Source: Pseudomonadales bacterium (GTDB lineage: Bacteria; Pseudomonadota; Gammaproteobacteria; Pseudomonadales; IMCC2047). From it: a stretch of 64,000 nucleotides of DNA. Shown one piece after another: positions 25,427 to 48,868 of the stretch (position 1 is its first letter; every line of letters begins with the position of its first letter). The position numbers and the translations under genes are program-made. The notes under the pieces were generated by a model. The model saw nothing but the letters and a program-made list of their open reading frames with translations, made no database searches and had not been told where the DNA came from. The DNA is taken from the NCBI GenBank assembly GCA_036960805.1, contig JBALXL010000005.1, forward strand, positions 15,300-79,299. The letters are read 5' to 3'.

Positions 25427-25454
25427 TTCTTACTTCTTACTTCTTACTTCTTAC
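25427..25454. repeat. Heptanucleotide tandem repeat (TTCTTAC) x4
   Basis: Four perfect head-to-tail copies read directly from the sequence. They span the stop codon and last codons (..CKK*) of the cbiX-like gene. Confidence 0.9.
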
Positions 25455-31004: not shown

Positions 31005-31039
31005 AGAAAACTATAAAGACTTAACATTCCGCTACTCGA

Positions 31040-31250
31040 ACAGGTGCCAGCGCTTCAATTGCGAAGTTAGGATAATCGGGAAGTATGGATAGCGTGATCT
31101 TTGATCATCAATCCCATCGCTGCCCCCGCATCGGTAATGAAGAGTCGTTTACACAAGCCACTAGATTCAAGTGATCTGGGAAGGCGTAAACATTTTGGTT
31201 GAGCCATTTTTGACGCAACCCTCTTTGAGCCCGAAGACCGGCCTGCTCAT
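31040..31250 (+). promoter_or_regulatory. Cobalamin (AdoCbl) riboswitch
   Basis: Conserved elements appear in the correct order:
- GGTGCC (31043)
- AATCGGGAAG (31074)
- AATCCC (31110)
- CGCTGCCCCCGCATCGGTAA (31118-31137)
- AGCCACT...GGGAAGGC (31156-31185)
- B12-box-like GAGCCCGAAGACCGGCC (31227-31243)
It lies directly upstream of cbtB. Confidence 0.85.
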
Positions 31251-31294
31251 TAATTTAACCTTACTAAACGCACGGTGGGTGCAAGGTGTTAAAC

Positions 31295-31489: not shown

Positions 31490-31636
31490 GCCCTTAGGTT
31501 TCTGAGAAAGTCTTAGAGAGACTCAAGAACCCTCTCGATCGGATTTCACCAGAAGCTTCTGCGCGCTTTACATTTACCAGCCTGACATCAGGCTGGTTGT
31601 GCTATTTGTCTGATCTTGTTGAATTAGGATTTTGAG

Positions 31637-32395
31637 ATGCTTTTACGCGGTATTATCTATAGCTCCCTGTTGATTGGCTTGCTGGTTGGCCTGTTGTTGA
31701 CTGGGATGCAGTCTGTTGTTGTTAACCCTATTATTTTTGCTTCTGAAGCTTACGAAACCGAAGAGGTTGCACCTGTTGCAGCGGCTCCTCATGCGCATGA
31801 CCATGGCGCTCACGAACATAACGATGAAGCTTGGGCGCCGGCAGATGGCGCTGAGCGACTGTTCTATACAGCGCTGGCTAACGTGATTGCCAGCATTGGC
31901 TTCGCGGCGGTATTGCTGGCGTTGATGAGCCAGACCCAGCTGCAGGGTTGGACATCTTCTTCTTTAGGCAAAGGCGTGTTGTGGGGCTTGGCGGGTTTCA
32001 TCGCCTTTTTTGCTGCGCCCGGTATTGGTCTGCCACCGGAAATCCCCGGCATTGAAGCCGCGCCATTGGATAATCGCCAAGGCTGGTGGGCATTAACAGT
32101 CGTGATGTTTGTTGTTGGAATGGGTCTATTGGCTTTTGCTCCGCTGAAACTCAAGGCGGTTTCACTGGTATTTTTCGCGCTGCCCTATGTCATCGGTGCG
32201 CCGCATGGTGCTGGCCCTGAGTTCACGGGTGATGCTGCATCAGTTGCGGCACTGACTGATCTACATTCCACATTTATTATGGCTAGTGGTATCACCAACT
32301 TGGTGTTCTGGCTGGTGCTGGGTGCGTTCAGCGCCTGGTGCGTCAATCGCTGGGTTCTGAAAGGAGCCTCGGGTCATGCAGTCGCCCACGGCTAA
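31637..32395 (+). CDS. cbtA: Cobalt transporter subunit CbtA
   Basis: 252 aa with about five TM helices and a His-rich periplasmic loop (HAHDHGAHEHNDE). Paired with cbtB behind the B12 riboswitch. Confidence 0.85.
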   Translation: MLLRGIIYSSLLIGLLVGLLLTGMQSVVVNPIIFASEAYETEEVAPVAAAPHAHDHGAHEHNDEAWAPADGAERLFYTALANVIASIGFAAVLLALMSQTQLQGWTSSSLGKGVLWGLAGFIAFFAAPGIGLPPEIPGIEAAPLDNRQGWWALTVVMFVVGMGLLAFAPLKLKAVSLVFFALPYVIGAPHGAGPEFTGDAASVAALTDLHSTFIMASGITNLVFWLVLGAFSAWCVNRWVLKGASGHAVAHG

Positions 32396-34094
32396 TTCTG
32401 CCGCGCAGTTTCCCTTTGTTGCGGTTACTGGGCAGCAGTCCTTTAAGTTAGCGCTTATTCTTGCTGCCATTAACCCCAAGTTAGGCGGGGTGTTGATCAG
32501 CGGCCCGCGCGGTTGTGCAAAATCGACACTGGCACGCGGCATGGCCGATCTGTTGCCGGGCGGTACACATACTTTTGTAACCCTGCCATTGGGGGCCACC
32601 GAAGATATGTTGGTGGGCACACTCGATTTACAGCAGGTGTTGCAGGACAAAAATGTCGCCTTTCATCCTGGTCTTCTTTCAAAAGCTGATGGCGGCATTC
32701 TCTACGTCGATGAAGTAAATCTACTTAATGATCATTTGGTTGATTTGTTGCTGGATGTGGCCGTTAGTGGTGTGAACTGCGTTGAACGTGACGGTATCAG
32801 TCACTCACACGCGGCTAACTTCCTGTTAGTTGGCACCATGAATCCTGATGAAGGCGAACTGCGCCCACAGCTGCAGGATCGTTTTGGTCTGGCCGTGCAT
32901 CTGGATAATCAATACAGCCTCGAAGAGCGCGTTGAAATCGTGCGCCGTCGTGAGGCCTTTGATGTGGACCCTCAAGGTTACTGCTCACAATATTTAGCTG
33001 AACAAACAGAACTGTTAGCTGCGCTCGAAACGGCTCGTAACGCACTGCCGCAGGTGCAATGTTCCGATGCGCTGAGAATTGCCATTGCCGAGCGTTGCCA
33101 TGCTGCCGGTGTAGAGGGTTTGCGTGCCGATATCGTCTGGTATCGTGCAGCATTAGCGCATGCAGCCTGGTGTGAGCGCAATGATGTCAGCGAAGAGGAT
33201 TTGTCTGCGGTTGAAGAGCTAGTGTTGGCGCATCGTCGTAAAACACCGCCTTCATCATCGACGCCACCACCATCCTCAAATCGCCGACCTCCGCAGCAAC
33301 AGCCACGCAATGAGCAGGATAGTTCGTCAGAGCCAGAAACAGCGCAGGGCGAGTGGGGCTCGATGGCACCGCAGCAATTAAAAACAGCCGATGCGTTAAA
33401 TGCAGGTGTGCCGGTAGGTGCAATATCTCCGCAAACGGTTCGTTCTCAAACGCTAGATGCTGCCAGCTCAAGTGCATCAAAGGGCGCTAGCAGTGGTTCC
33501 GGTAAGCTGTCGCAAAAAGAAACACGCCGCCCGAACTGGTTCACCAGTCTGGTGAGTAGCGCCGGACAGTGGCCGCCTACCCAATTAAAAATGCGCAAAG
33601 CACGTAGCGGTCAGCCAGTGCTGCACTTTGTGCTGTTGGACACCTCGGCATCGACTCTGAAAAACAGCCTGTTTGCCAATGCCAAAGCGGCGATTATGGA
33701 AATTGCTGAGCAGGCCTACCGCTCCCGTGAACAACTAACGGTGTGGGGCTTTGGTAATCAACAGGTCGAAAACTTTTTGCCGCGCCGCCGTGCACCAAAA
33801 GCGTTACGCCAATTGCTCGATACCATTCCTGCTGGGGGTGGCACGCCGTTGCGTGAAGGCTTGCAACAGGCGGGCGATTACCTGCGACAAATAGCTAAAC
33901 AACATCCCGAGATGGCGATGCGCACTTATTTGATTACCGATGGCCGCAGTTCACAGCAGGTGGCGGATTTACGTTTACCGGGTGAATGCTTGCTGATCGA
34001 CATTGAAAGCTCGCCAGTTAAACGTGGCCGTGGTCAGGAGTTAGCGCGCGAACTGGCGGCTGATTATTTTTCACTTTCGCCAGCCCATGCGTAG
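32376..34094 (+). CDS. ChlD/BchD-architecture cobaltochelatase accessory subunit (ChlI-like AAA+ module, Pro/Ser linker, vWA/MIDAS domain)
   Basis: 572 aa. The N-terminus is very ChlI/BchI-like:
- FPFVAVTGQQSFKLAL
- GPRGCAKST
- ILYVDEVNLLNDHLVDLLLDVAVSG
- LRPQLQDRFGL
A PPSSSTPPPSS...QQQP linker follows. The C-terminal vWA domain carries the DTSAS MIDAS motif. The gene overlaps the cbtA end by 20 nt. Confidence 0.85.
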   Translation: MQSPTANSAAQFPFVAVTGQQSFKLALILAAINPKLGGVLISGPRGCAKSTLARGMADLLPGGTHTFVTLPLGATEDMLVGTLDLQQVLQDKNVAFHPGLLSKADGGILYVDEVNLLNDHLVDLLLDVAVSGVNCVERDGISHSHAANFLLVGTMNPDEGELRPQLQDRFGLAVHLDNQYSLEERVEIVRRREAFDVDPQGYCSQYLAEQTELLAALETARNALPQVQCSDALRIAIAERCHAAGVEGLRADIVWYRAALAHAAWCERNDVSEEDLSAVEELVLAHRRKTPPSSSTPPPSSNRRPPQQQPRNEQDSSSEPETAQGEWGSMAPQQLKTADALNAGVPVGAISPQTVRSQTLDAASSSASKGASSGSGKLSQKETRRPNWFTSLVSSAGQWPPTQLKMRKARSGQPVLHFVLLDTSASTLKNSLFANAKAAIMEIAEQAYRSREQLTVWGFGNQQVENFLPRRRAPKALRQLLDTIPAGGGTPLREGLQQAGDYLRQIAKQHPEMAMRTYLITDGRSSQQVADLRLPGECLLIDIESSPVKRGRGQELARELAADYFSLSPAHA

Positions 34095-34104
34095 GTAAGG
34101 TTTT

Positions 34105-34704
34105 ATGACGGATAAAAACGAAGCTCACAAAAAACGCGCCGCCTCCCGCAAAGCCGTGATCGATGCAAAGATAGCCAAATCTACCGAAGAGCGTGGCGTA
34201 CTGATTCTTTTGAAAGGTCCGGGCAAAGGTAAAAGCAGTTCAGCCTTTGGCACCATGGCGCGTTCAGTTGGACATGGTAAGAAATGCGCGGTGATTCAGT
34301 TCATCAAAGGGCGTTTGGAAACCGGCGAATACAAACTGTTTAAAGATCATCCGCTAATCGATTGGCACATTATGGGTCACGGTTTTACCTGGGAAACGCA
34401 GGATCGCGAGAAAGACATTGAAGCCGCGCAGCAGGCCTGGGCGCTGGCAGAACAGCTTTTGCAGGATGACAGCTACGATATGCTGGTATTTGATGAGATG
34501 AGCTACATGTTCAAATACGGTTATCTGGATGTGGAGCCGGTTGTTAAGGCTTTGGAAAACCGTCCACTCATGCAGAGTGTGATTATTACCGGCCGTACCA
34601 TGGCCGCGCCGCTGCAGGATGTTGCCGACACCATCAGTGTCATTCAGGATGAGCGTCATGCCTTCCGTCTAGGTGTTAAGGCGCAGGCAGGCATCGAATT
34701 CTAA
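34105..34704 (+). CDS. cobO: Cob(I)yrinic acid a,c-diamide adenosyltransferase (CobO/BtuR/CobA type)
   Basis: 199 aa with the P-loop-like GPGKGKSSSAFG motif and the DEMSYMFKYGYL region typical of CobO/BtuR. Confidence 0.92.
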   Translation: MTDKNEAHKKRAASRKAVIDAKIAKSTEERGVLILLKGPGKGKSSSAFGTMARSVGHGKKCAVIQFIKGRLETGEYKLFKDHPLIDWHIMGHGFTWETQDREKDIEAAQQAWALAEQLLQDDSYDMLVFDEMSYMFKYGYLDVEPVVKALENRPLMQSVIITGRTMAAPLQDVADTISVIQDERHAFRLGVKAQAGIEF

Positions 34705-36071
34705 TGACTGCTTCCTTGTCTGCAAGTTGCCCCGCTCTATTTATTGCCGCGCCGTCTTCCGGGCAGGGTAAAACAACAGTAACCGCTGCATTGGCGCGTT
34801 TTTTTGCCCGTCAGGGTAAAGACGTTCGTGTATTCAAAACCGGCCCTGATTACCTCGATCCGCAAATTCTCGCACAAGCCTCAGGCAAACATGTCGAGCA
34901 GTTGGATATGTGGATGGCTGGCGAAGCTTACTGCCAACAAAAGTTATATGAAGCGGCCAGAGAGGCTGACCTGATTCTGGTGGAAGGCGCGATGGGCTTG
35001 TTTGATGGCGAGCCCTCTAGTGCTGATCTCGCTTCACGATTTAATATTCCTGTTGCCCTGCTGATGGACGTGAAAGGCATGGCGCAGACTGCGGCGGCGA
35101 TTGCTATCGGCTTGGCTAACTTCCGTGATGACGTAAAGTTTGTCGGTTTGATTGCCAATAATTGTGGCTCGGAACGTCATGCCCAGCTAATTCGCGATTC
35201 ATTGCCTGACAGTCTTCCGCTGTTAAGTATTTTTCCGCGCGATGAAGCAGTGGCTCTGCCAGAGCGCCATTTGGGCTTGGTGCAGCCTTCCGAAGTTGGT
35301 GATGAGTTAGATGTTCGAATCAACAATGGCGCTGATCAGATAGGCGAGAGTCTTCAGCGCGAAGACAGTGGCATTGCTGAATTGCCAAAGCCCGTTGAGT
35401 TTTTCGCGGTGATGGAAGCTGCACCTGAACAAAGCGTCGATCTGAGTAAGGTTAAAATTGCCGTCGCCAAAGACGAAGCATTTACTTTTATTTATGACGC
35501 AAACATACGATTTTTGCGTGAGTTAGGCGCAGAAGTCAGCTTTTTCTCGCCATTAAGCGACAAAGCTCTGCCGGAAGCCGATGCATTGTGGTTTCCGGGT
35601 GGTTATCCAGAATTACATGCACAGCAGTTATCAAAAAATAGCAGCATGATTGCGTCTGTTCGTGATTTTTCAGCCACAGATAAGCCGATTTTGGCTGAAT
35701 GTGGCGGTTTCCTTTATTGCCTAGAAAGTCTGACTGATTTACAGGACGTCACTTATCCGATGGCAGGAATCTTAGCGGGCGAAGGCGCCATGCGCGGCAA
35801 GCGTGGCTGTCAGGGTATGCAAACAGCGCCATTGCCGGAAGGTGAGGTGCGTGCTCATGCTCACCATCGCTCACGCTCTAGCGGCACACCGGAGCCAATT
35901 GCTCATGGCCGACGCCAGCGACATCCTGCACCGGGTGAAGCAATCTTCCGAGAGCGTGGATTAACGGCTACCTACCTTCATTTGTTCTTCCCATCTAACC
36001 CAGAGGCCGTAGCGCAATTGTTTAAGCCCCAGCTAGGTAAAGAGCTGGGTCAAATGAAAGCGACGGGCTGA
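34704..36071 (+). CDS. cobB: (Hydrogeno)cobyrinic acid a,c-diamide synthase (CobB/CbiA)
   Basis: 455 aa with SGQGKTTVTAALAR, a GPDYLDP motif and a C-terminal glutamine amidotransferase domain (ECGGFLY). TAATG overlap with cobO. Confidence 0.92.
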   Translation: MTASLSASCPALFIAAPSSGQGKTTVTAALARFFARQGKDVRVFKTGPDYLDPQILAQASGKHVEQLDMWMAGEAYCQQKLYEAAREADLILVEGAMGLFDGEPSSADLASRFNIPVALLMDVKGMAQTAAAIAIGLANFRDDVKFVGLIANNCGSERHAQLIRDSLPDSLPLLSIFPRDEAVALPERHLGLVQPSEVGDELDVRINNGADQIGESLQREDSGIAELPKPVEFFAVMEAAPEQSVDLSKVKIAVAKDEAFTFIYDANIRFLRELGAEVSFFSPLSDKALPEADALWFPGGYPELHAQQLSKNSSMIASVRDFSATDKPILAECGGFLYCLESLTDLQDVTYPMAGILAGEGAMRGKRGCQGMQTAPLPEGEVRAHAHHRSRSSGTPEPIAHGRRQRHPAPGEAIFRERGLTATYLHLFFPSNPEAVAQLFKPQLGKELGQMKATG

Positions 36072-36082
36072 AGTAAAAGAAT

Positions 36083-37204
36083 ATGTGGCCGGAGAGCGAA
36101 GAAGAACCTCGCCCCTTACGTACCGGTCTGACCACTGGCTGCTGTGCCACGGCTTGTTGTGTCGCTACTGCGCATTTATTACTGGGCGAGCAACGCGTTG
36201 AAAATGCCACGGTGACCTTGCCAGAAAAACGCGGCAAGGCAGGTAAGCAGGTCGAGCTGGTAATCTGTGACTTACTTTTGAGTAGGGGAATTAGTGGCGA
36301 TTCGGCGCGCGCGGCAACGATTAAAGACGCAGGTGATGACCCAGACGTAACACACGGCGCCAAAGTGTTCGTTGATCTGGAGTTGATATCAGAGCAGGGC
36401 GTTCAGTTTAAAGCGGGTGACGGCGTGGGTACCGTGACTCGCGACGGTTTGGCATTAGCTGTAGGTGAGGCTGCGATTAATCCTGTGCCGCAAATGATGA
36501 TGCGACAACACCTTGAGGATATTGCCGCTAGCTACGGTTATCAGGGTGGCTTTGTAGTCAGCGTTGGCGTGGAAAAAGGCGCGGAACTGGCGCAGAAAAC
36601 CATGAACCCGCGCTTGGGTATTATGGGCGGTTTATCAATTTTAGGCACTACAGGTATTGTGCGGCCCTTTTCCTGTTCGGCCTATATTGCCTCGATTCAT
36701 CAGGGCATTGATGTGGCGCTGGCCAATGGTTTTCAGCATGTTGCTGCGACCACGGGCAATACCAGCGAAGAAGCGATTCGTACGTATTATGGCTTGCCTG
36801 AAATGGCGTTGATTGAAATGGGCGATTTTGCCGGTGCCGTGTTGAAGTATCTGAAACAAAAGCCGGTGCAGAAAGTCAGCCTGTGCGGCGGTTTTGGCAA
36901 ATTAAGCAAGTTGGCGAATGGTCATTTGGATTTACACAGCCGTGCTTCCAGCGTGGATTTTGAGCAGCTGGCCGGATTGGCAAAAGAAGCGGGTGCCGAT
37001 GAAACTTTGCAAGATTCGATCCGCCAGGCCAATACCAGCATGGAAGCGCTGAAGTTATGCCAGCAGCAGAATGTTGATCTAGCGGCCGGTGTCTGTGACG
37101 CGGCTTTACAACATGCACGGAAAATTGTGCCCGCTGAAGTCGAACTGGAAATATGGGCAGTTGATCGCAAGGGCCAGTTTATTGGCTCGGCGGGTGTGCA
37201 ATGA
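36083..37204 (+). CDS. cbiD: Cobalt-precorrin-5B (C1)-methyltransferase CbiD
   Basis: 373 aa with the [13 protein letters not shown] motif and the [13 protein letters not shown] region typical of CbiD. Confidence 0.9.
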
Positions 37205-37968
37205 AGCTGTTATTGCTGGGTGGCACGGCGGATGCACGCCGATTAGCGAAACGATTCCTCTGCGATGAAGAGGGGCGAGATGATATTGAAATCGTCTACA
37301 GCGTAGCAGGACTGGTGCGTATGCCGGATGTTGATTGCGAAGTGATCAGTGGCGGTTTTAGCCAGTTTGGTGGTTTGCAGGCTTATCTTGAGCAGCAAAA
37401 GATTGATGCCGTATTAGATGCGACTCATCCCTACGCGGAGGCGATGACCTCCACGGCCTGGTCGGTAACGCAGCAGCTTGGTATGTCCTATTGGCGCTTT
37501 CATCGCGCTCCCTGGCAGGCGCAGGCTGGTGATAAATGGCAGATGTTTGCGGGTTGGCCGCAGTTACTTGCGGCGCTGACGGAGTTCAAGTCAGTTTTTC
37601 TGACTGCCGGTCAGATAAATGAATTGGCAGTGGCGACGTTTGCCAAATATGGTGAACAGAACCAGAAGCAATTGTTGCGAACAGCGGTGCAGCCAAAGCA
37701 TCCTCTGTCGGATTCGATGAGCTGGATTAAAGCCATCGGTCCCTTTGATTTAGAAAACGAACTGACGCTGATGAAACAGAATCAGGTAGATGTGCTGGTC
37801 AGTAAAAACAGTGGCGGTAAAGCCACCGAGGCCAAGCTGGAGGCGGCGCGTAATTTAGACATTCCTGTTATGATGCTGGCCCGTCCGGCATTACCTGATG
37901 GCATAACAGCTTTTGACCAAATTGATGCCTGTTCAGAACATATATTGAATTTTGGAAGCAAGAAGTGA
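37201..37968 (+). CDS. cobK: Precorrin-6A / cobalt-precorrin-6A reductase (CobK/CbiJ)
   Basis: 255 aa with [20 protein letters not shown] and VSKNSGG motifs. ATGA overlap with cbiD. Confidence 0.9.
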
Positions 37969-38507
37969 GAGTATCGGTTTATATTGGAATCAGTTTAGAT
38001 GGTTATATCGCCCGGGCCGATGGCGATATTGACTGGTTAATGGCTGCTGATACATCTGATGGTTCGGATGATTATGGCTATAAGGCGTTTTCGGACAGTG
38101 TTGATTGTATGATCATGGGCCGGAACACTTTTGAAAAGGTGCTGAGCTTTCCCGAATGGCCTTATGTAGGTAAACGACTTATTGTTTTGAGCCGCACGTT
38201 AAAAGCGCTGCCCGTAGAACTTGAAGAGTGTGTGGTGTTGTATTCGGGGTCGATAATTGAATTGGTGAAGCAACTGGAAAATGAAGGCTGTCAGCGACTC
38301 TACATTGATGGTGGCGAAACCATTCAGTCGTTTTTGAATGAGGGTTTGATAACAGACCTGAGCATAACTCGAGTGCCGGTATTGTTAGGTGAAGGCTTGT
38401 CACTCTTTGGTAAAACTAAGCAGGACATTCAACTCAAACACATTTCCACAAAAACCTTCAAAAATGGTTTTGTGCAATCAATCTATGGCGTCGTAAATGA
38501 AGTTTGA
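37965..38507 (+). CDS. Dihydrofolate-reductase-family / RibD C-terminal-domain protein (function in this operon unknown)
   Basis: 180 aa with the family pattern SLDGYIA...DW, MGRNTFE, LIVLSR, YIDGGETIQSFL and ITRVPVLLGEGLSLF. GTGA overlap with the cobK stop and an 11-nt overlap with the cobH start. Confidence 0.8.
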   Translation: MRVSVYIGISLDGYIARADGDIDWLMAADTSDGSDDYGYKAFSDSVDCMIMGRNTFEKVLSFPEWPYVGKRLIVLSRTLKALPVELEECVVLYSGSIIELVKQLENEGCQRLYIDGGETIQSFLNEGLITDLSITRVPVLLGEGLSLFGKTKQDIQLKHISTKTFKNGFVQSIYGVVNEV

Positions 38508-39138
38508 ATACGAAATAAACCCACAGGCAATTGAAGCAGAGAGCTTCCGCCAGATTCGCGAGCTGACGCCGCTTGACGGTTTCAGCCGGGAACAACAGCA
38601 GGTGGTGATGCGTATGGTGCACAGCGTCGGCATGCCAGAGCTGTCGGCACAGGTACGTTTCAGTGCGAACGCCTGCGAGAATGGCTTGAAGGCATTGGCT
38701 GAAAACTGCCCGATTCTGTGCGATGCCGAAATGGTTAAGCAGGGCATTACCAAACGTATGATTCAATCGTTGCCGTTGTGTTACCTCAATGACGAACGCA
38801 CGCCCGAGTTAGCCAAAGAGCGTGGCGAAACCCGCTCAATGGCTGCCCTGCAACTTTGGCAGGAAAAATTAGCAGACAGTGTGGTGGTGATCGGTAATGC
38901 GCCAACGGCGTTGTTTCGGTTGCTGGAAATGATTGAGAAGGGCGCGGAAAAACCAGCGTTGATTATTGGTATCCCGGTGGGATTTGTAGGTGCTGCTGAA
39001 TCCAAACAGGCGCTGTGGGACGTACATGAAAAGCTGGGTGTGGAATGCATCACTCTGCTGGGTCGTCAGGGCGGTAGTGCAATTTCGGCGTCAGTCTGTA
39101 ACGCATTGTTGCGCTGCAATAAGGGCGAGTATTACTGA
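38497..39138 (+). CDS. cobH: Precorrin-8X methylmutase (CobH/CbiC)
   Basis: 213 aa with typical CobH sequence (NPQAIEAESF..IR, MVHSVGMPE, VVIGNAPTALF, IIGIPVGFVGAAESK). Confidence 0.93.
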   Translation: MKFEYEINPQAIEAESFRQIRELTPLDGFSREQQQVVMRMVHSVGMPELSAQVRFSANACENGLKALAENCPILCDAEMVKQGITKRMIQSLPLCYLNDERTPELAKERGETRSMAALQLWQEKLADSVVVIGNAPTALFRLLEMIEKGAEKPALIIGIPVGFVGAAESKQALWDVHEKLGVECITLLGRQGGSAISASVCNALLRCNKGEYY

Positions 39139-39139
39139 T

Positions 39140-40402
39140 ATGTCAGCCTTTAAAATTCACATCATCGGCCTGGGTGTTACCGACACGGCCGAGCTTTCAA
39201 AGGCTGCGACAAAGGCATTAGCGAGTTGTGAGCGTGTGCTGGGTTCGGCGCGTCAGCTGGAGGTTGTAGCCGGGCAGTTGTCAGGACAGCAAACCGAGCA
39301 ATTACCCGAGTTGAAGAATTTGCCCGTTTATCTGGCGGATTTGATTCGCGACGGCGTTTCTAGTCTGGCGCTGCTGGCTTCTGGTGATCCACTTTATTAC
39401 GGCATTGGTCGCTGGTTCAGCAAGAATTTTAGTGACCAGCAATTACATTTTTATCCGGCCGTTTCCAGCATTCAGATGGCGTGTCATCAGTTGGGCCTGT
39501 CGTTGCAGGATGTTGAGGTTTTAAGCCTCCACGGGCGTCCGCTGGAGAAAATTCGCAGCAAGTTGAAAGCGCGCCAAACGCTAGTGATTTTGACTGATAA
39601 AAACAGTTCGCCACAGGCACTGGCACGTGAATGCATCGCCGCCGGTTTTGATGAATCACAGCTGAGCGTGTGTGAAGCGCTGGGTTATCCGCAGCAGCGC
39701 ATCAGTCGTTATTCGGCTGATGAAATGCTGCATGTGAATATTGATTTTGACCCGCTGCACGTAACGGTGATTGAAACGCGCGGCGACGGCGGTGTGTTAC
39801 CGGAATTCCCTGGCATACCTGACGCCTCGTATGTTACTGACAAGGCGGATGGTCGGGGCATGCTGACTAAGCGCGATGTGCGACTGTCGATTTTGTCATT
39901 GATGCAGCCTGCCAACAATGAAGTGATTTGGGATATTGGCGCGGGTTGTGGCGGTGTCTCAGTTGAGTTGGCCTATTGGAATGAGACGACTCAAGTGGTT
40001 GCCATTGAGCATCACGATGAACGGTTGAAATGTTTGAATGCCAACCGTGACAAGTTTGGATTGATGGGTAATTTGACCGTTGTGCAGGGCCGCGCCCCCG
40101 AGGCGTTGGAGGAATTACCTGCGCCGGACAAAATCTTTATTGGCGGTAGCGATGGCAGTTTGCCGGAGTTGCTGGAGCAGTGCTGGTCCAAGTTGCCCGC
40201 GCAGGGCCTGTTAGTCGCGAGTGCAGTAACCGAGCAGAGCAAACAACAATTATTGGCGTTTTATCAGCAGCGCGAGACGGTGAGAGATAGCCGTAATGAA
40301 ACCTTACAGGTGGCGGTGAGCCATGGTACGCAATTGGCAGGACAGTTGGTCTATCGCCCCAGTTTGCCTGTGACGCTGTTTAAATTTAGTAAGAGAAAAT
40401 AA
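39140..40402 (+). CDS. cobL: Precorrin-6Y C5,15-methyltransferase (decarboxylating), CobL = CbiE+CbiT fusion
   Basis: 420 aa from the ATG at 39140 (TGATATG junction with cobH). It has an N-terminal tetrapyrrole methylase domain and a C-terminal class-I methyltransferase domain (WDIGAGCGGVSVE). The track ORF extends upstream into cobH. Confidence 0.92.
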   Translation: MSAFKIHIIGLGVTDTAELSKAATKALASCERVLGSARQLEVVAGQLSGQQTEQLPELKNLPVYLADLIRDGVSSLALLASGDPLYYGIGRWFSKNFSDQQLHFYPAVSSIQMACHQLGLSLQDVEVLSLHGRPLEKIRSKLKARQTLVILTDKNSSPQALARECIAAGFDESQLSVCEALGYPQQRISRYSADEMLHVNIDFDPLHVTVIETRGDGGVLPEFPGIPDASYVTDKADGRGMLTKRDVRLSILSLMQPANNEVIWDIGAGCGGVSVELAYWNETTQVVAIEHHDERLKCLNANRDKFGLMGNLTVVQGRAPEALEELPAPDKIFIGGSDGSLPELLEQCWSKLPAQGLLVASAVTEQSKQQLLAFYQQRETVRDSRNETLQVAVSHGTQLAGQLVYRPSLPVTLFKFSKRK

Positions 40403-40404
40403 GC

Positions 40405-41145
40405 ATGAAAGACGATTTTTCTGACATAGCGGTTGGCACCTTTATTGGTGTGGGCGTAGGCCCCGGCGATCCTGAACTGATTACTTTAAAAGCGTTACGC
40501 GCTATTCGTAAGGCCGACGTGATCAGTTATATCGCCAATGATAAGGGTGAGTCACAAGCAAAATACATTGCCCGCGAGGCTTTGGAAGAAGTTAAAGATG
40601 GCCAGCAGGAAATCCCAGTATGTATGCCGATGTGCAATGATCGCAACATTGCGAACGGTGTGTACGACAAGGCTGCATCTGAGATACGCGAGCAATTGGA
40701 ACAGGGCCACAACGTGGTTTTCATTTGCGAAGGTGACCCGCTGTTTTTCGGTTCTTTCACCTATTTGCTGGAGCGCCTTGAGGATGACTGCCCTTGTCAG
40801 GTGATTCCGGGTATTTCATCGATCAATTCTGCCTCGGCGGCGCTGCGCCATCCGTTGACCATGTTGAAGGAGTCGCTGGTCGTGGTGAGTGGTCGTCATA
40901 GCGACGAGCAATTACGTGAAGCCTTGCTCCAGCACGATAGCGTAGTGATTATGAAGGCAGGTCGTGCGCGACCGCGTATTCTGGTGTTGTTGAAAGAGAC
41001 AAACCGTTTAGGTGAAGCGCGTTATCTGGAGAATATTGGTCGTCGTGACGAAATAATTTTTGAAGATATGTCAGCGCTGGACGAAGAAGAAGGCCCGTAC
41101 TTTTCGCTGTTTATCGTCACACGTTCGGAACGAGATCGTACATGA
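40405..41145 (+). CDS. cobI: Precorrin-2 / cobalt-factor-II C20-methyltransferase (CobI/CbiL)
   Basis: 246 aa tetrapyrrole methylase (GVGVGPGDPELITLKA, CEGDPLFFGSF, PGISS). Confidence 0.9.
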   Translation: MKDDFSDIAVGTFIGVGVGPGDPELITLKALRAIRKADVISYIANDKGESQAKYIAREALEEVKDGQQEIPVCMPMCNDRNIANGVYDKAASEIREQLEQGHNVVFICEGDPLFFGSFTYLLERLEDDCPCQVIPGISSINSASAALRHPLTMLKESLVVVSGRHSDEQLREALLQHDSVVIMKAGRARPRILVLLKETNRLGEARYLENIGRRDEIIFEDMSALDEEEGPYFSLFIVTRSERDRT

Positions 41146-41918
41146 TTCGTATTGTTGCACTCACCGAGAAGGGCAAAGAGCTGGCTGTTCGCCTCAAGAG
41201 TGAGTTGGTGGATGCAGAGTTGTGGTACAAACCGCAGCCCTTTACCGAAAAAGTGCAGCAAGCATTTGCGGCCGGTGAACGTTTGATTTTGATCTGCGCT
41301 ACTGGCATTGCCGTGCGCACGCTGGGACCGGTGCTAGGTAACAAACATAATGATCCGGCGGTACTCGTGCTGGATGAGTTGGGCCAGTTTGTGATTCCGC
41401 TGTTGTCGGGTCATGAAGGTGGTGCCAATGAGTGGGGCGCTCAGGTGGCAGAAAAGCTGGGTGCTCAGTTAGTGCTGACGACAGCGAAAAGTTATTTAAA
41501 ACCGGTGTACTGTGTCGGCATGGGCTGCGAGCGTGATACGCCAGTGTCGGAAATTGCGGATCTGTTCAGCGATTGTCTGCAATCGCTGGGGTTGAATATT
41601 CGCGAGTTGAGCAGCATTAACAGTATTGATATTAAAGCTGATGAAGTCGGTTTCATCGATCTGGCGCGGATCAGTAAAATCCCGTTTCTAACCTGGGATA
41701 AAGAGCAGCTTGGCACCATGGAAAGTTTGCTTAGTACGCGCTCGGATTATATTTTTAACACCGTGGGTGTCTACGGTGTGGCTGAATCGGCGGCGCTTTA
41801 TGCAGCCCAGCAAGCCAGTGGTGATTTTGAGGCAGCGCCGGAGTTGTTGCTGCCAAAACAGAAAAAAGGCCGGGTAACCTGTGCGGTTGCGCGAGCCTAT
41901 GTGAAGGATGTTAGTTAG
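41142..41918 (+). CDS. cbiG: Cobalt-precorrin-5A hydrolase CbiG (N-terminal plus C-terminal/CobE-like domains)
   Basis: 258 aa. The CbiG N-domain shows ICATGIAVRTLGP...DPAVLVLDE.G.FVIPLLSGHEGGAN. A CobE-like C-domain follows (CVGMGCERDTP..., GVYGVAESAAL). ATGA overlap with cobI. Confidence 0.85.
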   Translation: MIRIVALTEKGKELAVRLKSELVDAELWYKPQPFTEKVQQAFAAGERLILICATGIAVRTLGPVLGNKHNDPAVLVLDELGQFVIPLLSGHEGGANEWGAQVAEKLGAQLVLTTAKSYLKPVYCVGMGCERDTPVSEIADLFSDCLQSLGLNIRELSSINSIDIKADEVGFIDLARISKIPFLTWDKEQLGTMESLLSTRSDYIFNTVGVYGVAESAALYAAQQASGDFEAAPELLLPKQKKGRVTCAVARAYVKDVS

Positions 41919-41921
41919 AGA

Positions 41922-42704
41922 ATGAGTAAATTATTTGTAGTGGGTACCGGTCCTGGTGATTCTGAATTAGTAGCACCTAAAGCACGTGCCGCAATTGTGG
42001 CGAGTTCTGATCTGGTGGCCTATGGCCTGTATCTGGATTTGTTGGGTGACGTGTGTGACGGTAAAGCGCATCATGATTTGCCTTTGGGTGAAGAAATTAA
42101 TCGTGCGCGTCTGGCATTGGATTTAGCGGCTAGCGGTAAAACGACGTCGCTTGTTTCCAGTGGTGATATCGGCATTTACGCGATGGCGACGCTGGTATTT
42201 GAGTTGTTGGATCGCCAACTTCAGGGCTTGGAAGATCACCCCGAATGGTTGGATGTCGAGATTGAGGTTATCCCCGGTATTTCTGCGATGCAGGCGGGCG
42301 CTGCGCGAGTGGGTGCGTTGCTTGGGCATGACTTTTGTACGGTATCGCTGTCGGATTTGCTGACGCCATGGGAAACCATTGAGCAGCGTATTCATTGCGC
42401 AGGCAAAGGCGATTTTGTAATTTCCTTTTATAATCCGGTATCGAAAAAACGCGATTGGCAACTTAATGCAGCACGCGATATTTTGCTGCAATCTCGCCCA
42501 GCGTCAACGCCGGTATTATTGGGTCGTCAGTTAACCCGTGAAGATGAAAGCGTCACCATCACCACCTTGGGCGAGCTGGATGCCAAAGACGTGGATATGT
42601 TCACGATGGTGTCGGTGGGTAATAGCGAATCACGTCATATTGTTAATGGCAGTAAAGAGTGGGTTTATACGCCCCGTGGCTACAGCAAAAAGTTGGTGAA
42701 TTAA
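41922..42704 (+). CDS. cobJ: Precorrin-3B / cobalt-factor-III C17-methyltransferase (CobJ/CbiH)
   Basis: 260 aa tetrapyrrole methylase (LFVVGTGPGD, SSGDIGIYAMA, IPGISAMQ, SLSDLLTPWE..I). Confidence 0.9.
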   Translation: MSKLFVVGTGPGDSELVAPKARAAIVASSDLVAYGLYLDLLGDVCDGKAHHDLPLGEEINRARLALDLAASGKTTSLVSSGDIGIYAMATLVFELLDRQLQGLEDHPEWLDVEIEVIPGISAMQAGAARVGALLGHDFCTVSLSDLLTPWETIEQRIHCAGKGDFVISFYNPVSKKRDWQLNAARDILLQSRPASTPVLLGRQLTREDESVTITTLGELDAKDVDMFTMVSVGNSESRHIVNGSKEWVYTPRGYSKKLVN

Positions 42705-43493
42705 ATGACAGTCTATTTTATTGGCGCAGGCCCGGGTGATCCCGAATTAATCACAGTAAAAGGCCAGCGCCTGATTAAAGAGTCACCAGTGATTCTGTAT
42801 GCTGGCTCGTTGGTTCCTCTCGAAATCCTCGATATTGCCGAGGGCCGAGCCGAGAAAATCATCGATACCGCTTCCATTGATCTCGACGAGATCATGGTGC
42901 ATATCGAAGCTGCGCATGCTGAAGGCAAAGATGTAGCACGAGTGCACTCTGGCGATCCTTCCGTGTACGGCGCGATTGGCGAGCAGATCCGCCGATTGGA
43001 GCAACTGGGTATCGATTTCGAAGTGATTCCTGGCGTTACAGCGACTTCTGCATCTGCCGCGTGGTTGGGCAAAGAGCTTACGCTGTCAGAAGTTTCGCAA
43101 ACGATCATCATGACTCGCTACGAAGGTAAAACGCCATTCCCGGAACGAGAGCGTTTGCCAGAATTGGCACGCAGTGGCGCAACTTTGGCTATTCATTTGG
43201 GCATTAATCGAATCCATAAAATTGTTGAAGAACTTATTCCACATTATGGCGAAGATTGTCCGGTAGCCGTGTGTTATCGAACCTCCTGGCCTGATCAGGA
43301 TAAGGTAATCGGCACCCTGACGGATATCGTTGCTAAAGTTCGCGAGAAAAAATTTACTCGGACAGCGCTGATTCTGGTCGGCCATGTGCTGGACAGTGAT
43401 CAATTCCGTGACTCTTATTTGTACAGTAAAGATCAGGCGCACGTTTATCGACCCAAGGTGAAGCCTGCTGTGGCACGTACGGTTAAAAGATAA
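42705..43493 (+). CDS. cobM: Precorrin-4 / cobalt-precorrin-4 C11-methyltransferase (CobM/CbiF)
   Basis: 262 aa (VYFIGAGPGDPELITVKG, RVHSGDPSVYGA, IPGVTA). Starts immediately after the cobJ stop. Confidence 0.93.
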   Translation: MTVYFIGAGPGDPELITVKGQRLIKESPVILYAGSLVPLEILDIAEGRAEKIIDTASIDLDEIMVHIEAAHAEGKDVARVHSGDPSVYGAIGEQIRRLEQLGIDFEVIPGVTATSASAAWLGKELTLSEVSQTIIMTRYEGKTPFPERERLPELARSGATLAIHLGINRIHKIVEELIPHYGEDCPVAVCYRTSWPDQDKVIGTLTDIVAKVREKKFTRTALILVGHVLDSDQFRDSYLYSKDQAHVYRPKVKPAVARTVKR

Positions 43494-43747: not shown

Positions 43748-43780
43748 TTTGTAAATAGAAACACTCTATTGGAAGCAACC

Positions 43781-44866
43781 ATGCAACTAAACAAAATACC
43801 CGCCACTATCGTTACCGGTTTTCTGGGCAGCGGTAAAACTACGTTATTATCGAATGTTCTGAAACAGGCGGCGGGCAAACGTATTGCCGTGATCGTTAAT
43901 GAGTTTGGCGAACTGGATATTGATGCCGACCTGCTACGCAGCTGCCCGCTTAGCTGTGATGACGAAAGCAATGAGGGTTCAACAACGCAGGGGCAGGACG
44001 GTATTTACGAACTGGCCAATGGTTGTATCTGTTGCACCGTGGAAGAAGAGTTTCTGCCAGTGATGAAGCAACTGGTGGCGCGTCGTAATGATATCGATCA
44101 CATTCTGATTGAGACCAGCGGTTTAGCGTTACCGAAACCATTGGTACAGGCGTTTAACTGGCCTGAAATCAAACAGTTCTGCACCGTTGATGCGGTGATT
44201 ACCGTGGTTGACGGGCCAGCAATCAGCGCCGGTCGTTTTGCCAGTGATGAAGCGCGTGTTGAAGCGCAACGACAGGGCGATGAAAGTCTGGATCACGATC
44301 CAAGCCTGCAGGAATTGCTGGATGATCAGCTCAGTGCTGCCGATCTGGTGGTGGTTAGTAAAAATGATCTGCTCAGCGATGCCGAACGTGAAGAGGTGAG
44401 AAAACGCATTACCGCACGTTTACCCGAGTCAGTGAAAACGGCCTACATCAGCAACGGCGAAACTCAGCTGGATGTGTTGATGGGTATTGAAGCTGCTGCC
44501 GAAGATCGTATTGATGCGGTGCATACTCACCACGATCATCACCACCATCATGGTGAGCACCATGATCACGCCCACGATCACTTTGATTCCTTTGTGATTA
44601 CCATGGATGAAGTGGAAGCCGAGCCGCTACAAACGGCGTTGAAAGGTTTGCTTGCTGAGCACAATATCTTCCGTGCGAAAGGTTTTGCAGCTTTGCCGGG
44701 TAAACCGATGCGCCAGGTATTACAGGCGGTAGGTGAACGTCTTGATGTGCATTTTGATCGCCTCTGGCAGGCCGATGAAGCACGCAAAACTAGCCTGGTA
44801 TTTATCGGTAAAGATCTTGATGAAGCCGTGGTACGTAAGGCGCTTGAAACGGCGTTGGTGGCATAA
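43781..44866 (+). CDS. cobW: Cobalamin biosynthesis GTPase / metallochaperone CobW (COG0523)
   Basis: GFLGSGKTTLL P-loop, CICCT metal motif, ETSGLA, and the His stretch HTHHDHHHHHGEHHDHAHDH. The start is ATG 43781; the track uses TTG 43769. Confidence 0.92.
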   Translation: MQLNKIPATIVTGFLGSGKTTLLSNVLKQAAGKRIAVIVNEFGELDIDADLLRSCPLSCDDESNEGSTTQGQDGIYELANGCICCTVEEEFLPVMKQLVARRNDIDHILIETSGLALPKPLVQAFNWPEIKQFCTVDAVITVVDGPAISAGRFASDEARVEAQRQGDESLDHDPSLQELLDDQLSAADLVVVSKNDLLSDAEREEVRKRITARLPESVKTAYISNGETQLDVLMGIEAAAEDRIDAVHTHHDHHHHHGEHHDHAHDHFDSFVITMDEVEAEPLQTALKGLLAEHNIFRAKGFAALPGKPMRQVLQAVGERLDVHFDRLWQADEARKTSLVFIGKDLDEAVVRKALETALVA

Positions 44867-44995
44867 CTAGATTGACATTTCGACCAGCGGGAGAGATCTT
44901 TTCGGCATAGAAAAGAAAGGTCTCTCACCGTCGCTTACCCGCAAGCGAGTACAAGCGGGATGAAACGTATTTTTAATAGGTAATAAAAGCATTCT

Positions 44996-47900
44996 ATGCA
45001 CCTACTAGCCTCAAAACCCGGTGGCTTTGTCGATGACGAAGGTATTGTTGATCTGGACCAAAGCCCCGCTGACTTGGTTATTCTATCGGCAGCGGATAGT
45101 AGTTTAGCGGCGCTGGCCGGTGCAGTTGATATCCTATCCTCAGACTTTCCTTCCGTACGGTTAGCTAACTGGATGCAGTTGGCTAAACCGGCGGCCTTTG
45201 ACCTTTACCGACACAAGGTTTTGGATCATGCCAAGGTGGTGGTGCTGTCTTTGTTGGGTGGCAAAAACTACTGGCCCTACGGTTTTGAGCAGTTGTCGGA
45301 ATGGCTTAGCGAGGCGACACCCAAAAATCCTCGTCAATTAATCATCGTACCGGGTGATGACAGCGCCGATCCTGAATTAACGCTCGCTAGCTCGGTATCA
45401 CCTGAGCAAGCACATCGAGTGTGGCGTTATCTGCGTGAAGGTGGCGTGAGCAACGCGCAGCAATTATTGAATTTCATCGGCAGTGAATATCTCGATGGCG
45501 ATTACGCCTGGGGTGAACCCCAGCAGTTGCCACCCTGTTTGATGTACATGCCGAGCTTTGGCCAAGCAACGTTGCTTGAGTGGCAGCAGCGCTGGGCTCT
45601 GAATGACGATAAGACTGAGCAGCCCGTTTGCCTACTGTTGTTTTATCGGAGTCACCTGCAAAGCGCTAATACACAGATGTTTGATGGTCTGATTGAGTGC
45701 CTCGAACAGCAAGGCTTGCACCCGTTACCTATTGCCCTGACTTCCCTAAAAGACGCCGATAGCCTGACGCTGGTTAATTCATTAATCGAGCAAACCGGTG
45801 CGAGTTTAGTCATCAATACCACCAGCTTTGCCAGTAATAGCGTGTCTACGCCTGAGCTGTCGTCACAACCCACTCTGTACGAATCATCTTTTGAAAAAGC
45901 ACTGCCAGTTTTGCAGTTAGTGCTTTCCAGCAGTACCGAAGAGGATTGGCTCGAACATAGCCAAGGCCTGCGCAGCCGCGATATTGCCATGCAGGTGGTG
46001 TTGCCGGAAATGGACGGGCGCATTATCACTCGTGCCGTCAGTTTCAAGGCCGAAAGCCACTTCTGTGAGCGAGGTGAAATTTCTGTCGTGTCCTATGCGC
46101 TGCAACCGGAGCGAGCTTCCTTTGTAGCGCAACTGGCAAAGCGTTATTGCGCGCTGACCAGTAAACCGAATGCTGAAAAACGTATCGCGCTGATGCTGGC
46201 CAATTATCCAACGCGTGATGGCCGTATCGGCAATGGCGTCGGACTGGATACGCCTGCTTCGACTATCAATATTCTGCGCGCTCTTGAGCAGGCCGGTTAT
46301 CCGATCAGTAATGTGCCGGAAACGGGTAATCAACTGATTGAAGAATTGTTGGGGGCGGTTACTAATAACCCGGCGACTTTGCATCAGTTACCCTGTTGGC
46401 AGAGCATTGCTGTTGATGAGTATTTGGCGCATTTTCAAAAGCTACCCGAAGCCTGTCAGCGTGCTGTCACTGAGCAATGGGGTGGCCCCGAGCAAGATCC
46501 TAAATGTCGGCAAGGTCGTTTAATGATTGCCGGTATTCGCCTTGGTGAAACCTTTATCGGTATTCAGCCTGCGCGTGGTTTTAATATGGACCTTCAGGCC
46601 AATTATCACGATCCTGACTTGGTGCCGCCGCACAGTTACCTAGCTTGTTATTTCTGGCTACGCGAAACCTATCAAGTTGATGCCGTTATTCATGTCGGCA
46701 AACACGGCAATTTGGAATGGCTGCCGGGCAAAGGTCTTGGCTTATCTGAAAGCTGCTGGCCAGACATTGCGCTGGGACCTATGCCGCATTTTTATCCCTT
46801 TATTGTTAATGATCCCGGTGAAGGCGCGCAGGCTAAACGCCGTGCGCAGGCGACCATTATTGATCACCTGATGCCTCCGATGACGCGTGCTGAAAGCTAT
46901 GGTGAGTTGGCCGAACTGGAAAATTTGGTGGATGAGTATTACCAAGCGCTCGGTATGGATACCCGTCGTGAAACTTGGTTGCGCGAGCAGATTCTTGAAC
47001 AGGTCAAAGTCACCCATGTGCTTGATGAACTGAGTCTTTCACCGGAGTGCGAACAGGGCGATGACGAAGTGCTTGCCGAGCTGGATGGTTATTTGTGTGA
47101 AATTAAAGAGGCGCAGATTCGTCACGGTTTGCATATTCTTGGCGAGCTGCCTGAAGACTCAAAGCTGACCGACACGGTGGTGGCGCTGTTGCGCTTGCCG
47201 CGTGGCGAAGAACCAGCCGGTTTAGGTATTTTACATGCGCTGGCAACTGATCTGGCACTGAATTGCGTTGATCCATTGGCGCTGGATGCCACTCCCTGGC
47301 TGGGCAATAAACCGCAAGTTTTAGCGGATCTGGATGACAGTGTTTGGCGCACCGGTGCTGATACCCGTGAGCGTCTTGAGCTGTTAGCCCAAAAGTTGAT
47401 AGCAGAATATGTGGTTGCTGACGGTGAGAGCGCGTCATTGGCTGTGCAACTGTCAGCAACGTATCCGCAAACCAGTCAATTATTAGCCTACGCCAAACAG
47501 GTGTTGATGGCGGCGCTGGATCAAAGTGCTTATCTTGAAATCAATGCGCTGATCGAAGGGCTTAATGGATTGTTTGTCCCTCCCGGTCCTAGCGGCGCAC
47601 CAACCCGTGGGCGACTCGATACGTTGCCCACCGGACGTAACTTCTTCTCGGTGGATAATCGCTCTATTCCTTCGCCAGCGGCCTGGGTGCTGGGACAACT
47701 TTCTGCGCAGGCCTTAATCGAACGGCATCTGCAGGAGCACGGCGATTACCCCCAACAGCTGGGCTTGTCGGTGTGGGGCACGGCCACCATGCGCACCGGT
47801 GGTGATGATATCGCGCAGGCTTTTGCGCTGATGGGTATAAAACCGATTTGGGCACAGGGTTCGCAGCGGGTGGTGGACTTTGAAATTATGCCGGCCATGT

Positions 47901-48868
47901 TGATGGGCCGACCGCGTGTCGATGTCACCTTGCGTGTGTCGGGCTTTTTCCGAGACGCCTTTCCTAATGTGATTAAACTTTTTGATGCGGCGGTACTGGC
48001 GTTGGCTGAATTTGACGAGCCGGGGCAGGATAACCGCATACGTACTCATATCGAGACAAGACAGCAAACGTTGCTGGATGAAGGGCTGACTGAAAATGAA
48101 GCGCTGCGCCAAGCCAGTTATCGTGTGTTTGGAAGTAAACCGGGTGCCTATGGCGCTGGATTACAGGGCCTAATTGATGAGCGATGCTGGGATGAACAAA
48201 GCGATCTAGCAGAAGCCTATTTAAACTGGGGCGGCTATGCCTATGGTCGCCATGACTTGTCCCCAGAGGCTGAGAGCAAAGACTTTGGAGGCATTGAAGC
48301 GCAGGGTAGTTTCCGTCATCAGTTATCGCAGTTGGAAGCGGTGGTGCAGAATCAGGATAACCGAGAACATGATTTGCTCGATTCCGATGATTATTACCAG
48401 TTTCAGGGCGGCATGACTAATGCGGTCACCGTACTCAAGGGTGATGCACCAGCGGTGTATCACAGCGATCACTCCAATCCATCGGCACCTAAAATTCGTA
48501 CATTGAAAGAAGAGCTGAATCGCGTAGTGCGTTCTCGCTTGCTGAATCCTAAATGGATAAATGCCATGCAGGAGCACGGCTATAAAGGCGCTTTTGAGAT
48601 GACCGCCAGCGTCGATTATTTATTCGCCTACGATGCCACCACTAATTTGATTGACGATTATCAGTATGAAAAAGTAGCCGATGCGCTGGTGTTTGATGAA
48701 GTTAACCAGAAATTTTTGCAGGATAATAATCCTAATGCTTTGGAAGAAATGGCTGAGCGTTTACTGGAAGCCACTCAGCGCGGTTTGTGGCAGGAGCCGG
48801 GTGAATATGCCGATCAGTTACAGAGCTTATTATTAGAGCTGGATGAGCAACAGGAAATGAGTTCGTAA
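44996..48868 (+). CDS. cobN: Cobaltochelatase large subunit CobN
   Basis: 1290 aa with a typical CobN N-terminus (MHLLASKPG...IVDLDQSPADLVILSAADS.LAALA) and CobN/ChlH-family conservation throughout. Confidence 0.97.
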   Translation: MHLLASKPGGFVDDEGIVDLDQSPADLVILSAADSSLAALAGAVDILSSDFPSVRLANWMQLAKPAAFDLYRHKVLDHAKVVVLSLLGGKNYWPYGFEQLSEWLSEATPKNPRQLIIVPGDDSADPELTLASSVSPEQAHRVWRYLREGGVSNAQQLLNFIGSEYLDGDYAWGEPQQLPPCLMYMPSFGQATLLEWQQRWALNDDKTEQPVCLLLFYRSHLQSANTQMFDGLIECLEQQGLHPLPIALTSLKDADSLTLVNSLIEQTGASLVINTTSFASNSVSTPELSSQPTLYESSFEKALPVLQLVLSSSTEEDWLEHSQGLRSRDIAMQVVLPEMDGRIITRAVSFKAESHFCERGEISVVSYALQPERASFVAQLAKRYCALTSKPNAEKRIALMLANYPTRDGRIGNGVGLDTPASTINILRALEQAGYPISNVPETGNQLIEELLGAVTNNPATLHQLPCWQSIAVDEYLAHFQKLPEACQRAVTEQWGGPEQDPKCRQGRLMIAGIRLGETFIGIQPARGFNMDLQANYHDPDLVPPHSYLACYFWLRETYQVDAVIHVGKHGNLEWLPGKGLGLSESCWPDIALGPMPHFYPFIVNDPGEGAQAKRRAQATIIDHLMPPMTRAESYGELAELENLVDEYYQALGMDTRRETWLREQILEQVKVTHVLDELSLSPECEQGDDEVLAELDGYLCEIKEAQIRHGLHILGELPEDSKLTDTVVALLRLPRGEEPAGLGILHALATDLALNCVDPLALDATPWLGNKPQVLADLDDSVWRTGADTRERLELLAQKLIAEYVVADGESASLAVQLSATYPQTSQLLAYAKQVLMAALDQSAYLEINALIEGLNGLFVPPGPSGAPTRGRLDTLPTGRNFFSVDNRSIPSPAAWVLGQLSAQALIERHLQEHGDYPQQLGLSVWGTATMRTGGDDIAQAFALMGIKPIWAQGSQRVVDFEIMPAMLMGRPRVDVTLRVSGFFRDAFPNVIKLFDAAVLALAEFDEPGQDNRIRTHIETRQQTLLDEGLTENEALRQASYRVFGSKPGAYGAGLQGLIDERCWDEQSDLAEAYLNWGGYAYGRHDLSPEAESKDFGGIEAQGSFRHQLSQLEAVVQNQDNREHDLLDSDDYYQFQGGMTNAVTVLKGDAPAVYHSDHSNPSAPKIRTLKEELNRVVRSRLLNPKWINAMQEHGYKGAFEMTASVDYLFAYDATTNLIDDYQYEKVADALVFDEVNQKFLQDNNPNALEEMAERLLEATQRGLWQEPGEYADQLQSLLLELDEQQEMSS

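Follow-up and report, generated by a model that had tools for sequence, protein, structure and literature searches.

What does a small reductase gene do in the middle of an operon for cobalamin (vitamin B12) synthesis, where it overlaps cobK at one end and cobH at the other? The question is raised by a stretch of 64,000 nucleotides (nt) from a Pseudomonadales bacterium (NCBI GenBank assembly GCA_036960805.1, contig JBALXL010000005.1, positions 15,300 to 79,299), hereafter the window, in which an open reading frame (ORF) for a 180-residue protein of the RibD C-terminal/dihydrofolate reductase (DHFR) fold family is set between the two cob genes. The original prediction took this ORF, here called the RibD_C gene, as a candidate for an unassigned step in corrin synthesis. 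Comparison with related operons and with the wider protein family leads us to a different answer: the gene probably encodes a functional, horizontally acquired accessory NADPH reductase that rides on the cob operon and is not a required step of B12 synthesis. What is new is the genomic context found for a member of a known, functionally uncharacterised family, rather than a new kind of system.

The first line of evidence is that the gene comes and goes among close relatives. We mapped contigs from a metagenome scan with CobH, using the Cob proteins of the window, and compared those with a CobH 90–96% identical to that of the window. The RibD_C gene was present in one set of contigs (L001-3, L089, L092, L095 and L123; L129 and L133-140 are carriers too) and absent from the same junction in another (L090, L091, L093, L094 and L122), in which cobK is joined straight to cobH across 15–22 nt and CobH is 92–95% identical. 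Carriers and non-carriers share samples (for example Ga0105355 and Ga0105359), are equally far from the window at synonymous sites (synonymous divergence, dS, of about 0.5–1), and are interleaved in neighbour-joining trees of cobH and cobK (drawn with no bootstrap). Presence of the gene is not conserved in related cob operons, as it is absent also from all more distant relatives. Because sister genomes have the same operon and lack the gene, it is not a required corrin-ring step, and the proposal of an unassigned step in corrin synthesis is not supported: absence from this junction in close relatives is one of the outcomes that the original prediction itself had named as refuting. Closely related populations living side by side may gain the gene, lose it or pass it between them.

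The flanking genes record the direction of this change. CobH begins with MKF in carriers and with MPF in both the non-carriers and the outgroup L097 (CobH 88% identical). Over its last ~11 codons, CobK of the carriers has a sequence of its own where non-carriers read VTAVLNRV, and the non-carriers and L097 share a similar hydrophobic tail in place of the 12 residues that end the carrier protein. Since the outgroup and the non-carriers agree in MPF and in this type of CobK tail, the insertion is the derived state, and it altered the genes on both sides, cobK in its final codons and cobH in codon 2. Other relatives have something else at this position. In distant ones (CobH 70–76% identical; L105, L109, L114-L117, L124 and L128) the same junction holds cbiX, encoding a 333-residue protein with a His-rich C-terminal tail (for example L115, 2996–3997), and in L096-L098 cobK and cobH are separated by a ~210-nt non-coding spacer in which no remnant of RibD_C or cbiX was found. 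With cbiX, a spacer or nothing there in relatives, the cobK-cobH junction is a permissive and variable site. The window itself has a CbiX-type chelatase gene just upstream of the operon (25444–26724, minus strand; PF01903, E 1.3e-45).

Composition also sets the gene apart from its surroundings. The original prediction had judged it AT-rich by eye, and a count agreed: its G+C content (GC) is 0.431, whereas the 23 remaining operon genes have 0.511±0.020, which puts it about 4 standard deviations low, and at third codon positions (GC3) the figures are 0.436 and 0.516±0.050. The closest stand-alone homologs have GC of 0.35–0.44 within loci of 34–50% GC. The composition of the gene is foreign and points to a lower-GC donor; this compositional case for foreign origin stands, and together with the derived state of the insertion it upholds the suggestion of a later recruitment into the operon. 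The event was most probably the insertion of a stand-alone DHFR-like gene from such a donor into the short cobK-cobH spacer, in one narrow marine Pseudomonadales lineage. The sole other low-GC outlier of the cob operon (GC 0.441) is a 123-residue ORF of the VOC/glyoxalase fold between cobC and cobS (52654–53025, plus strand; PF00903, E 7.8e-11; no NCBIfam match), which is probably a second passenger gene. As this is a second low-GC, non-canonical gene, the operon appears to tolerate passengers.

Presence/absence polymorphism and foreign GC would also be expected of a neutral or decaying passenger with an inactive protein, and it is the coding sequence that makes this extremely improbable. All ~20 carrier contigs keep the 180-codon reading frame intact, and the protein has 29 of the 30 residues that are invariant in the family, departing from them only at position 8. 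Among five carriers compared with an NG86 implementation, the ratio of nonsynonymous to synonymous divergence (dN/dS) of the RibD_C gene is 0.09–0.23 at dS of 0.30–0.62, which largely refutes neutrality; the corresponding ratio for cobK is 0.08–0.15. Because dN/dS is low, the frame is intact and the invariant residues are kept, the gene is functional. The dS of the RibD_C gene (0.37–0.62 in this comparison) is close to that of cobK, cobI and cbiG (cbiD and cobL were also compared). A recent sweep of the gene as a cassette, suggested by a dS below that of cobH, was considered and dropped, as cobH is the high-dS outlier. Against L001, L089 and L095, cobH has dS of 0.8–1.6, and neighbouring genes in the same genome pairs have 0.35–0.9, which suggests recombination or a separate history of cobH.

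If the gene belonged to the logic of corrin synthesis, its family might be expected near cob genes elsewhere. A homolog search covering 5.8 billion proteins returned 1573 homologs. All those at least 81% identical to the window protein (P0001-P0005 and P0035; ~20 contigs) are embedded in cob operons with the same 4-nt and 11-nt overlaps, the best relatives outside cob operons are 63–69% identical, and no homolog at 69–81% identity was found in this search. As every copy at or above 81% lies in a cob operon and none falls at 69–81%, the cob-embedded genes are, by sequence identity, one narrow clade. An apparent carrier with no cobH downstream (L129, LUKH01001164.1) was rejected as most likely a chimeric contig; it matches cobK-RibD_C up to nt 654 and continues as unrelated GC-rich sequence (655–1220), which produces the 208-residue 'protein' P0035.

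Beyond that clade, the association with cobalamin genes disappears. We scanned with a family profile at the species level, one genome per species, kept the best 80 loci (45–69% identity, ±8 kb), sought cob genes in their flanks by tblastn with 14 Cob proteins of the window, and added 10 metagenomic loci from the 63–68% identity tier (including L004-008 and L130-132). No cob gene was found near a homolog at any of the best 80 species-level loci or the 10 metagenomic loci, all of which have homologs at most 69% identical; the survey of co-occurrence proposed with the original prediction therefore gave 0 cob-linked cases among 90 loci outside the single clade. Clustering of the genes within 4 kb at 85 stand-alone loci yielded no neighbour family in more than 6 of the 85, and the top clusters were generic (GGDEF, histidine kinase, SDR, ABC ATPase). 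No association with rib, fol or cob genes emerged at the stand-alone loci, and a family-wide link with cob genes was not observed. Literature searched on RibD_C/PF01872 with cobalamin, on YyaP and on cobK, cobH and DHFR together likewise yielded no cob-linked RibD_C gene.

The family assignment made from the sequence was confirmed by profile and structure comparison. The protein matches Pfam RibD_C (PF01872) above the gathering threshold (E 1.5e-16; 61.3 bits, cutoff 24.1) and over its full length, residues 5–170 aligning with positions 5–196 of a 197-position profile. An AlphaFold2 (AF2) model (predicted local distance difference test score, pLDDT, 82) has the DHFR-type alpha/beta fold, and the top Foldseek matches are all RibD_C/DHFR folds with template modelling (TM) scores of 0.7–0.89, led by 3ky8 (E 1.4e-21, TM 0.89) and followed by SacH, YyaP and Thermotoga maritima DHFR. 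Curated models for specific functions were not reached: Pfam DHFR_1 (PF00186) scored 20.2 bits, under its 25-bit cutoff, the riboflavin reductase models TIGR00227, TIGR01508 and TIGR00326 scored 31.1, 21.2 and 19.6 bits against cutoffs of 150.15, 186.45 and 156.35, and NF041386 (HdrA) scored 26.4 against 300. Only residues ~88–144, the predicted NADPH-binding half, align to the RibD models, and the substrate-binding half does not. By these tests the predicted protein belongs to the RibD_C superfamily but is neither a reductase of the riboflavin pathway nor a canonical DHFR; an identical NCBI protein, from a metagenome-assembled genome, is named 'dihydrofolate reductase family protein [Pseudomonadales bacterium]'. 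In size, single-domain structure and retention of all but one of the invariant columns (A8G), it belongs with the stand-alone YyaP/3KY8-type clade. This family consists of single-domain proteins of ~175–185 residues (in a sample of 32 sequences, column identity averages 60% and 30 columns are invariant) and is spread over Proteobacteria, Chloroflexota, Acidobacteriota, Cyanobacteria, Planctomycetota and archaea. Its conserved motifs include G52-R53 and D115-G116-G117, which we take, from what is known of DHFR, to be NADPH-binding.

The closest solved structure is PDB 3KY8, a 'putative riboflavin biosynthesis protein' of Shewanella sp. PV-4 that belongs, like the window protein, to the small stand-alone RibD_C/DHFR-like proteins (phmmer E 3.6e-36, 40% identity, TM 0.89, full-length alignment); it differs in being a structural-genomics entry for which no cob context was found in this work. 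Bacillus subtilis YyaP (2GD9), Pediococcus 3JTW and Mycobacterium smegmatis MS0308 (2XW7) are likewise stand-alone 'putative DHFR' proteins of ~175–190 residues that share its fold and motifs (24–30% identity, E 1e-13 to 1e-18), themselves uncharacterised. The reductase domain of RibD/RibG and archaeal Rib7 share Pfam PF01872, the SLDG N-terminal motif and an alignable NADPH-binding half, but the window protein has no deaminase domain and falls short of the curated RibD models by a wide margin. FolA (PF00186) belongs to the same fold superfamily, with GR(x)T and (D/G)GG nucleotide motifs, and T. maritima DHFR was matched by Foldseek at E 3.7e-15. Among the close structural relatives, SacH (PDB 7XH2/7XH4) alone has been characterised biochemically. 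It matches the window protein in fold and size (TM 0.82, profile E 8.9e-24) but has only 23–25% identity, and its gene lies in an antibiotic gene cluster rather than a cofactor operon. SacH is a DHFR-like NAD(P)H-dependent reductase of an iminium/hemiaminal carbon that serves in safracin self-resistance (PMC10031226).

These relationships bear on whether the protein might help under B12 limitation and not act on the corrin ring at all. It could supply flavin for BluB by reducing riboflavin-pathway pyrimidines, as BluB destroys one flavin mononucleotide (FMN) per dimethylbenzimidazole, or it could adjust the pool of folates during a stall of B12-dependent methionine synthase. Such an auxiliary would suit a riboswitch-controlled operon that ends in a bona fide bluB (TIGR02476, 268.7 bits, cutoff 150), a fold family that includes both RibD reductase domains and DHFRs, and purifying selection in the cob context. 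We nevertheless regard it as unlikely. The protein scores far under the RibD reductase models (31 against 150 and 21 against 186), with the NADPH-binding half alone aligning, and it does not reach the cutoff of Pfam DHFR_1 either. Close relatives whose operon is the same, including its bluB-type organisation, do without the gene, and elsewhere the family is unlinked to rib, fol and cob genes. SacH and eight RibD_C-type homologs did not reduce dihydrofolate (PMC10031226). The original prediction had named BluB flavin supply and a corrinoid reductase among its candidate roles, and nothing that we found speaks for either in particular.

The predicted substrate pocket is one place where the cob-embedded copies depart from the rest of the family. 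SacH contacts its substrate through residues that include Ala9, Tyr38, Tyr68 and Thr136 (PMC10031226). In the profile alignment with the window protein, Ala9 corresponds to residue 8, Tyr38 lies near Y37/Y39, Tyr68 corresponds to Y67 and Thr136 to T135, whereas the window protein has M26 and K58 in place of SacH Glu27 and Trp57. Y67 sits within the family-invariant WPY (W65-P66-Y67). By analogy with DHFR, RibD and SacH, the enzyme would bind NADPH via G52-R53 and D115-G116-G117 and reduce, by hydride transfer, a C=N-type bond in a substrate that may be held against strand beta1 (residue 8), Tyr37/39, W65-P66-Y67 and Thr135.

Several observations weigh against a mere rider on the operon, and one concerns this pocket. 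When 8 cob-embedded copies were compared with 114 stand-alone homologs, position 8 was Gly in 8/8 of the former and Ala in 114/114 of the latter (A8G), and position 9 was Ile in 7/8 and Thr in 93%, respectively (T9I). The two codons (37986–37991) lie on strand beta1, at and beside the position of the SacH substrate contact. This hints that the pocket could have been slightly altered after recruitment, but a conservative change peculiar to this lineage is an equally good explanation; further clade-specific changes at otherwise conserved columns are V72L and I137V. A8G/T9I is the only evidence that we found for a context-specific function. Tight overlaps at both ends and a selection like that on cobK would also fit a pathway-useful gene, and no copy of the cob-embedded clade was found outside a cob operon, which leaves room for a B12-linked benefit. 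Finally, the non-carrier contigs are short, and a second copy elsewhere in those genomes is possible, against which weighs the empty interval at 69–81% identity in the protein search.

A direct action on a corrin-pathway molecule was also considered, whether as an auxiliary precorrin-6A reductase, as a re-reducer of oxidised precorrin by-products or as a Co(II)-corrinoid reductase replacing CobR. A place between cobK and cobH that overlaps both genes, and the A8G/T9I changes on a substrate-facing strand, would suit such a role, SacH illustrates the recruitment of a DHFR-like enzyme to a bulky non-folate substrate, and, in keeping with the earlier remark that no CobR was visible, no flavin-reductase-type protein of the CobR type was found among the operon ORFs scanned, ORFs at 1–22000 being outside the scan. 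We consider it very unlikely all the same. Sister lineages that have the same operon can dispense with the gene, the family has no cob linkage elsewhere, and the junction holds an unrelated cbiX or nothing in other relatives, as befits a permissive site rather than pathway logic. An alternative precorrin-6 reductase, one of the roles first proposed, is unneeded next to an intact and selected cobK immediately upstream. CobK/CbiJ and CobR are nicotinamide-dependent reductases of the B12 pathway, but neither has a sequence or fold relation to RibD_C. CobR is a flavin reductase and the known corrinoid reductases are flavoproteins, whereas the DHFR-like RibD_C fold is not, to our knowledge, known to bind flavin.

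A variant of this idea is that the cob-embedded clade was re-tuned after insertion into an optional NADPH-dependent helper of corrin synthesis, which re-reduces air-oxidised precorrin 'factor' by-products or assists a reduction step beside CobK. If true, carriers would have a higher B12 yield in oxic seawater from a gene that is yet dispensable, and an optional reductase would be added to an aerobic-type pathway thought fully assigned; present evidence makes this highly doubtful. We return to an accessory reductase riding on the operon as the probable reading, in which selection may maintain the gene either for the reductase function proper to its family or for an auxiliary, dispensable benefit when B12 is limiting.

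The setting of the gene suggests when such a protein would be made. Its embedding was confirmed as first described, with a GTGA overlap with cobK, an 11-nt overlap with cobH and both neighbours identified by Pfam (Table 1). The GTG is well placed as a start codon because it lines up with the initiator Met of all homologs aligned (31/31), and GGAAG stands 6 nt 5' of it; at the other end, the ATG of cobH lies inside the ORF, and the final 11 nt are shared. Upstream of the insert the operon runs cbtA, a chlID-type chelatase subunit, cobO, cobB, cbiD and cobK, and it continues after it with cobH, cobL, cobI, a cbiG-like gene, two more methyltransferase genes, cobW, cobN, cobQ, cobU, cobT, cobC, the VOC/glyoxalase-fold ORF, cobS, cobD, an aminotransferase gene and bluB. 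A cobalamin riboswitch heads this operon, and the genes from 31637 to 43493 are tightly packed with overlaps or short gaps, which places the RibD_C gene within the riboswitch-headed unit. Consensus scans found promoter-like and terminator-like sites inside the region at chance level only, on which ground an own promoter or an internal terminator for RibD_C was rejected, and the simplest reading places the ORF on the riboswitch-controlled transcript. Because it would be transcribed behind a cobalamin riboswitch, the protein is expected to be made when B12 is scarce. Its translation would be coupled to that of cobK via the GTGA and passed on to cobH via the 11-nt overlap, as the layout suggests.

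Table 1. Coordinates of the RibD_C gene, its junctions, its neighbours and the riboswitch in the window
Feature	Position	Strand	Details
RibD_C/DHFR-like NADPH reductase gene (NADPH use predicted)	37965..38507	+	180 aa, GTG start; Pfam RibD_C
GTGA start/stop overlap with cobK (upstream insertion junction)	37965..37968	+	
11-nt overlap with cobH start (downstream insertion junction)	38497..38507	+	
cobK, precorrin-6A reductase	37201..37968	+	Pfam CbiJ/CobK 4.4e-53 (PF02571)
cobH, precorrin-8X methylmutase	38497..39138	+	Pfam CbiC/CobH 1.9e-70, NCBIfam NF006136
Cobalamin riboswitch	31025..31260	+	Rfam RF00174, 80.7 bits, E 2.7e-18; heads cbtA...bluB operon

Some further features of the operon were noted. 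Between the riboswitch aptamer and cbtA stands the strongest terminator-like hairpin of the region (31576–31597, plus strand; 9 bp, 6 GC, T-rich tail), which may be part of the expression platform or lie 3' of a small cbtB-like ORF. The plus strand encodes a late-insertion chelatase set, CobN/ChlID/CobW (32376–34094 and 43769–48868), as well as CbiD and a CbiG-like protein, and with the CbiX-type chelatase gene these form a mixed early/late cobalt-insertion complement. The mechanically called 470-residue ORF at 38990–40402 (plus strand), which overlaps cobH by ~150 nt, is over-extended; cobL homologs in relatives have 420 residues and start right after cobH (about 39140 in the window).

Tight embedding in an operon and translational coupling alone, this locus cautions, do not indicate a role in the pathway that surrounds a gene. 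In this operon for a cofactor, a gene of foreign origin was inserted cleanly and is maintained by selection, and sister populations in the same samples live without it. Carriers and non-carriers thereby offer a natural presence/absence pair for probing the large uncharacterised YyaP/3KY8 branch of the DHFR-like reductases.

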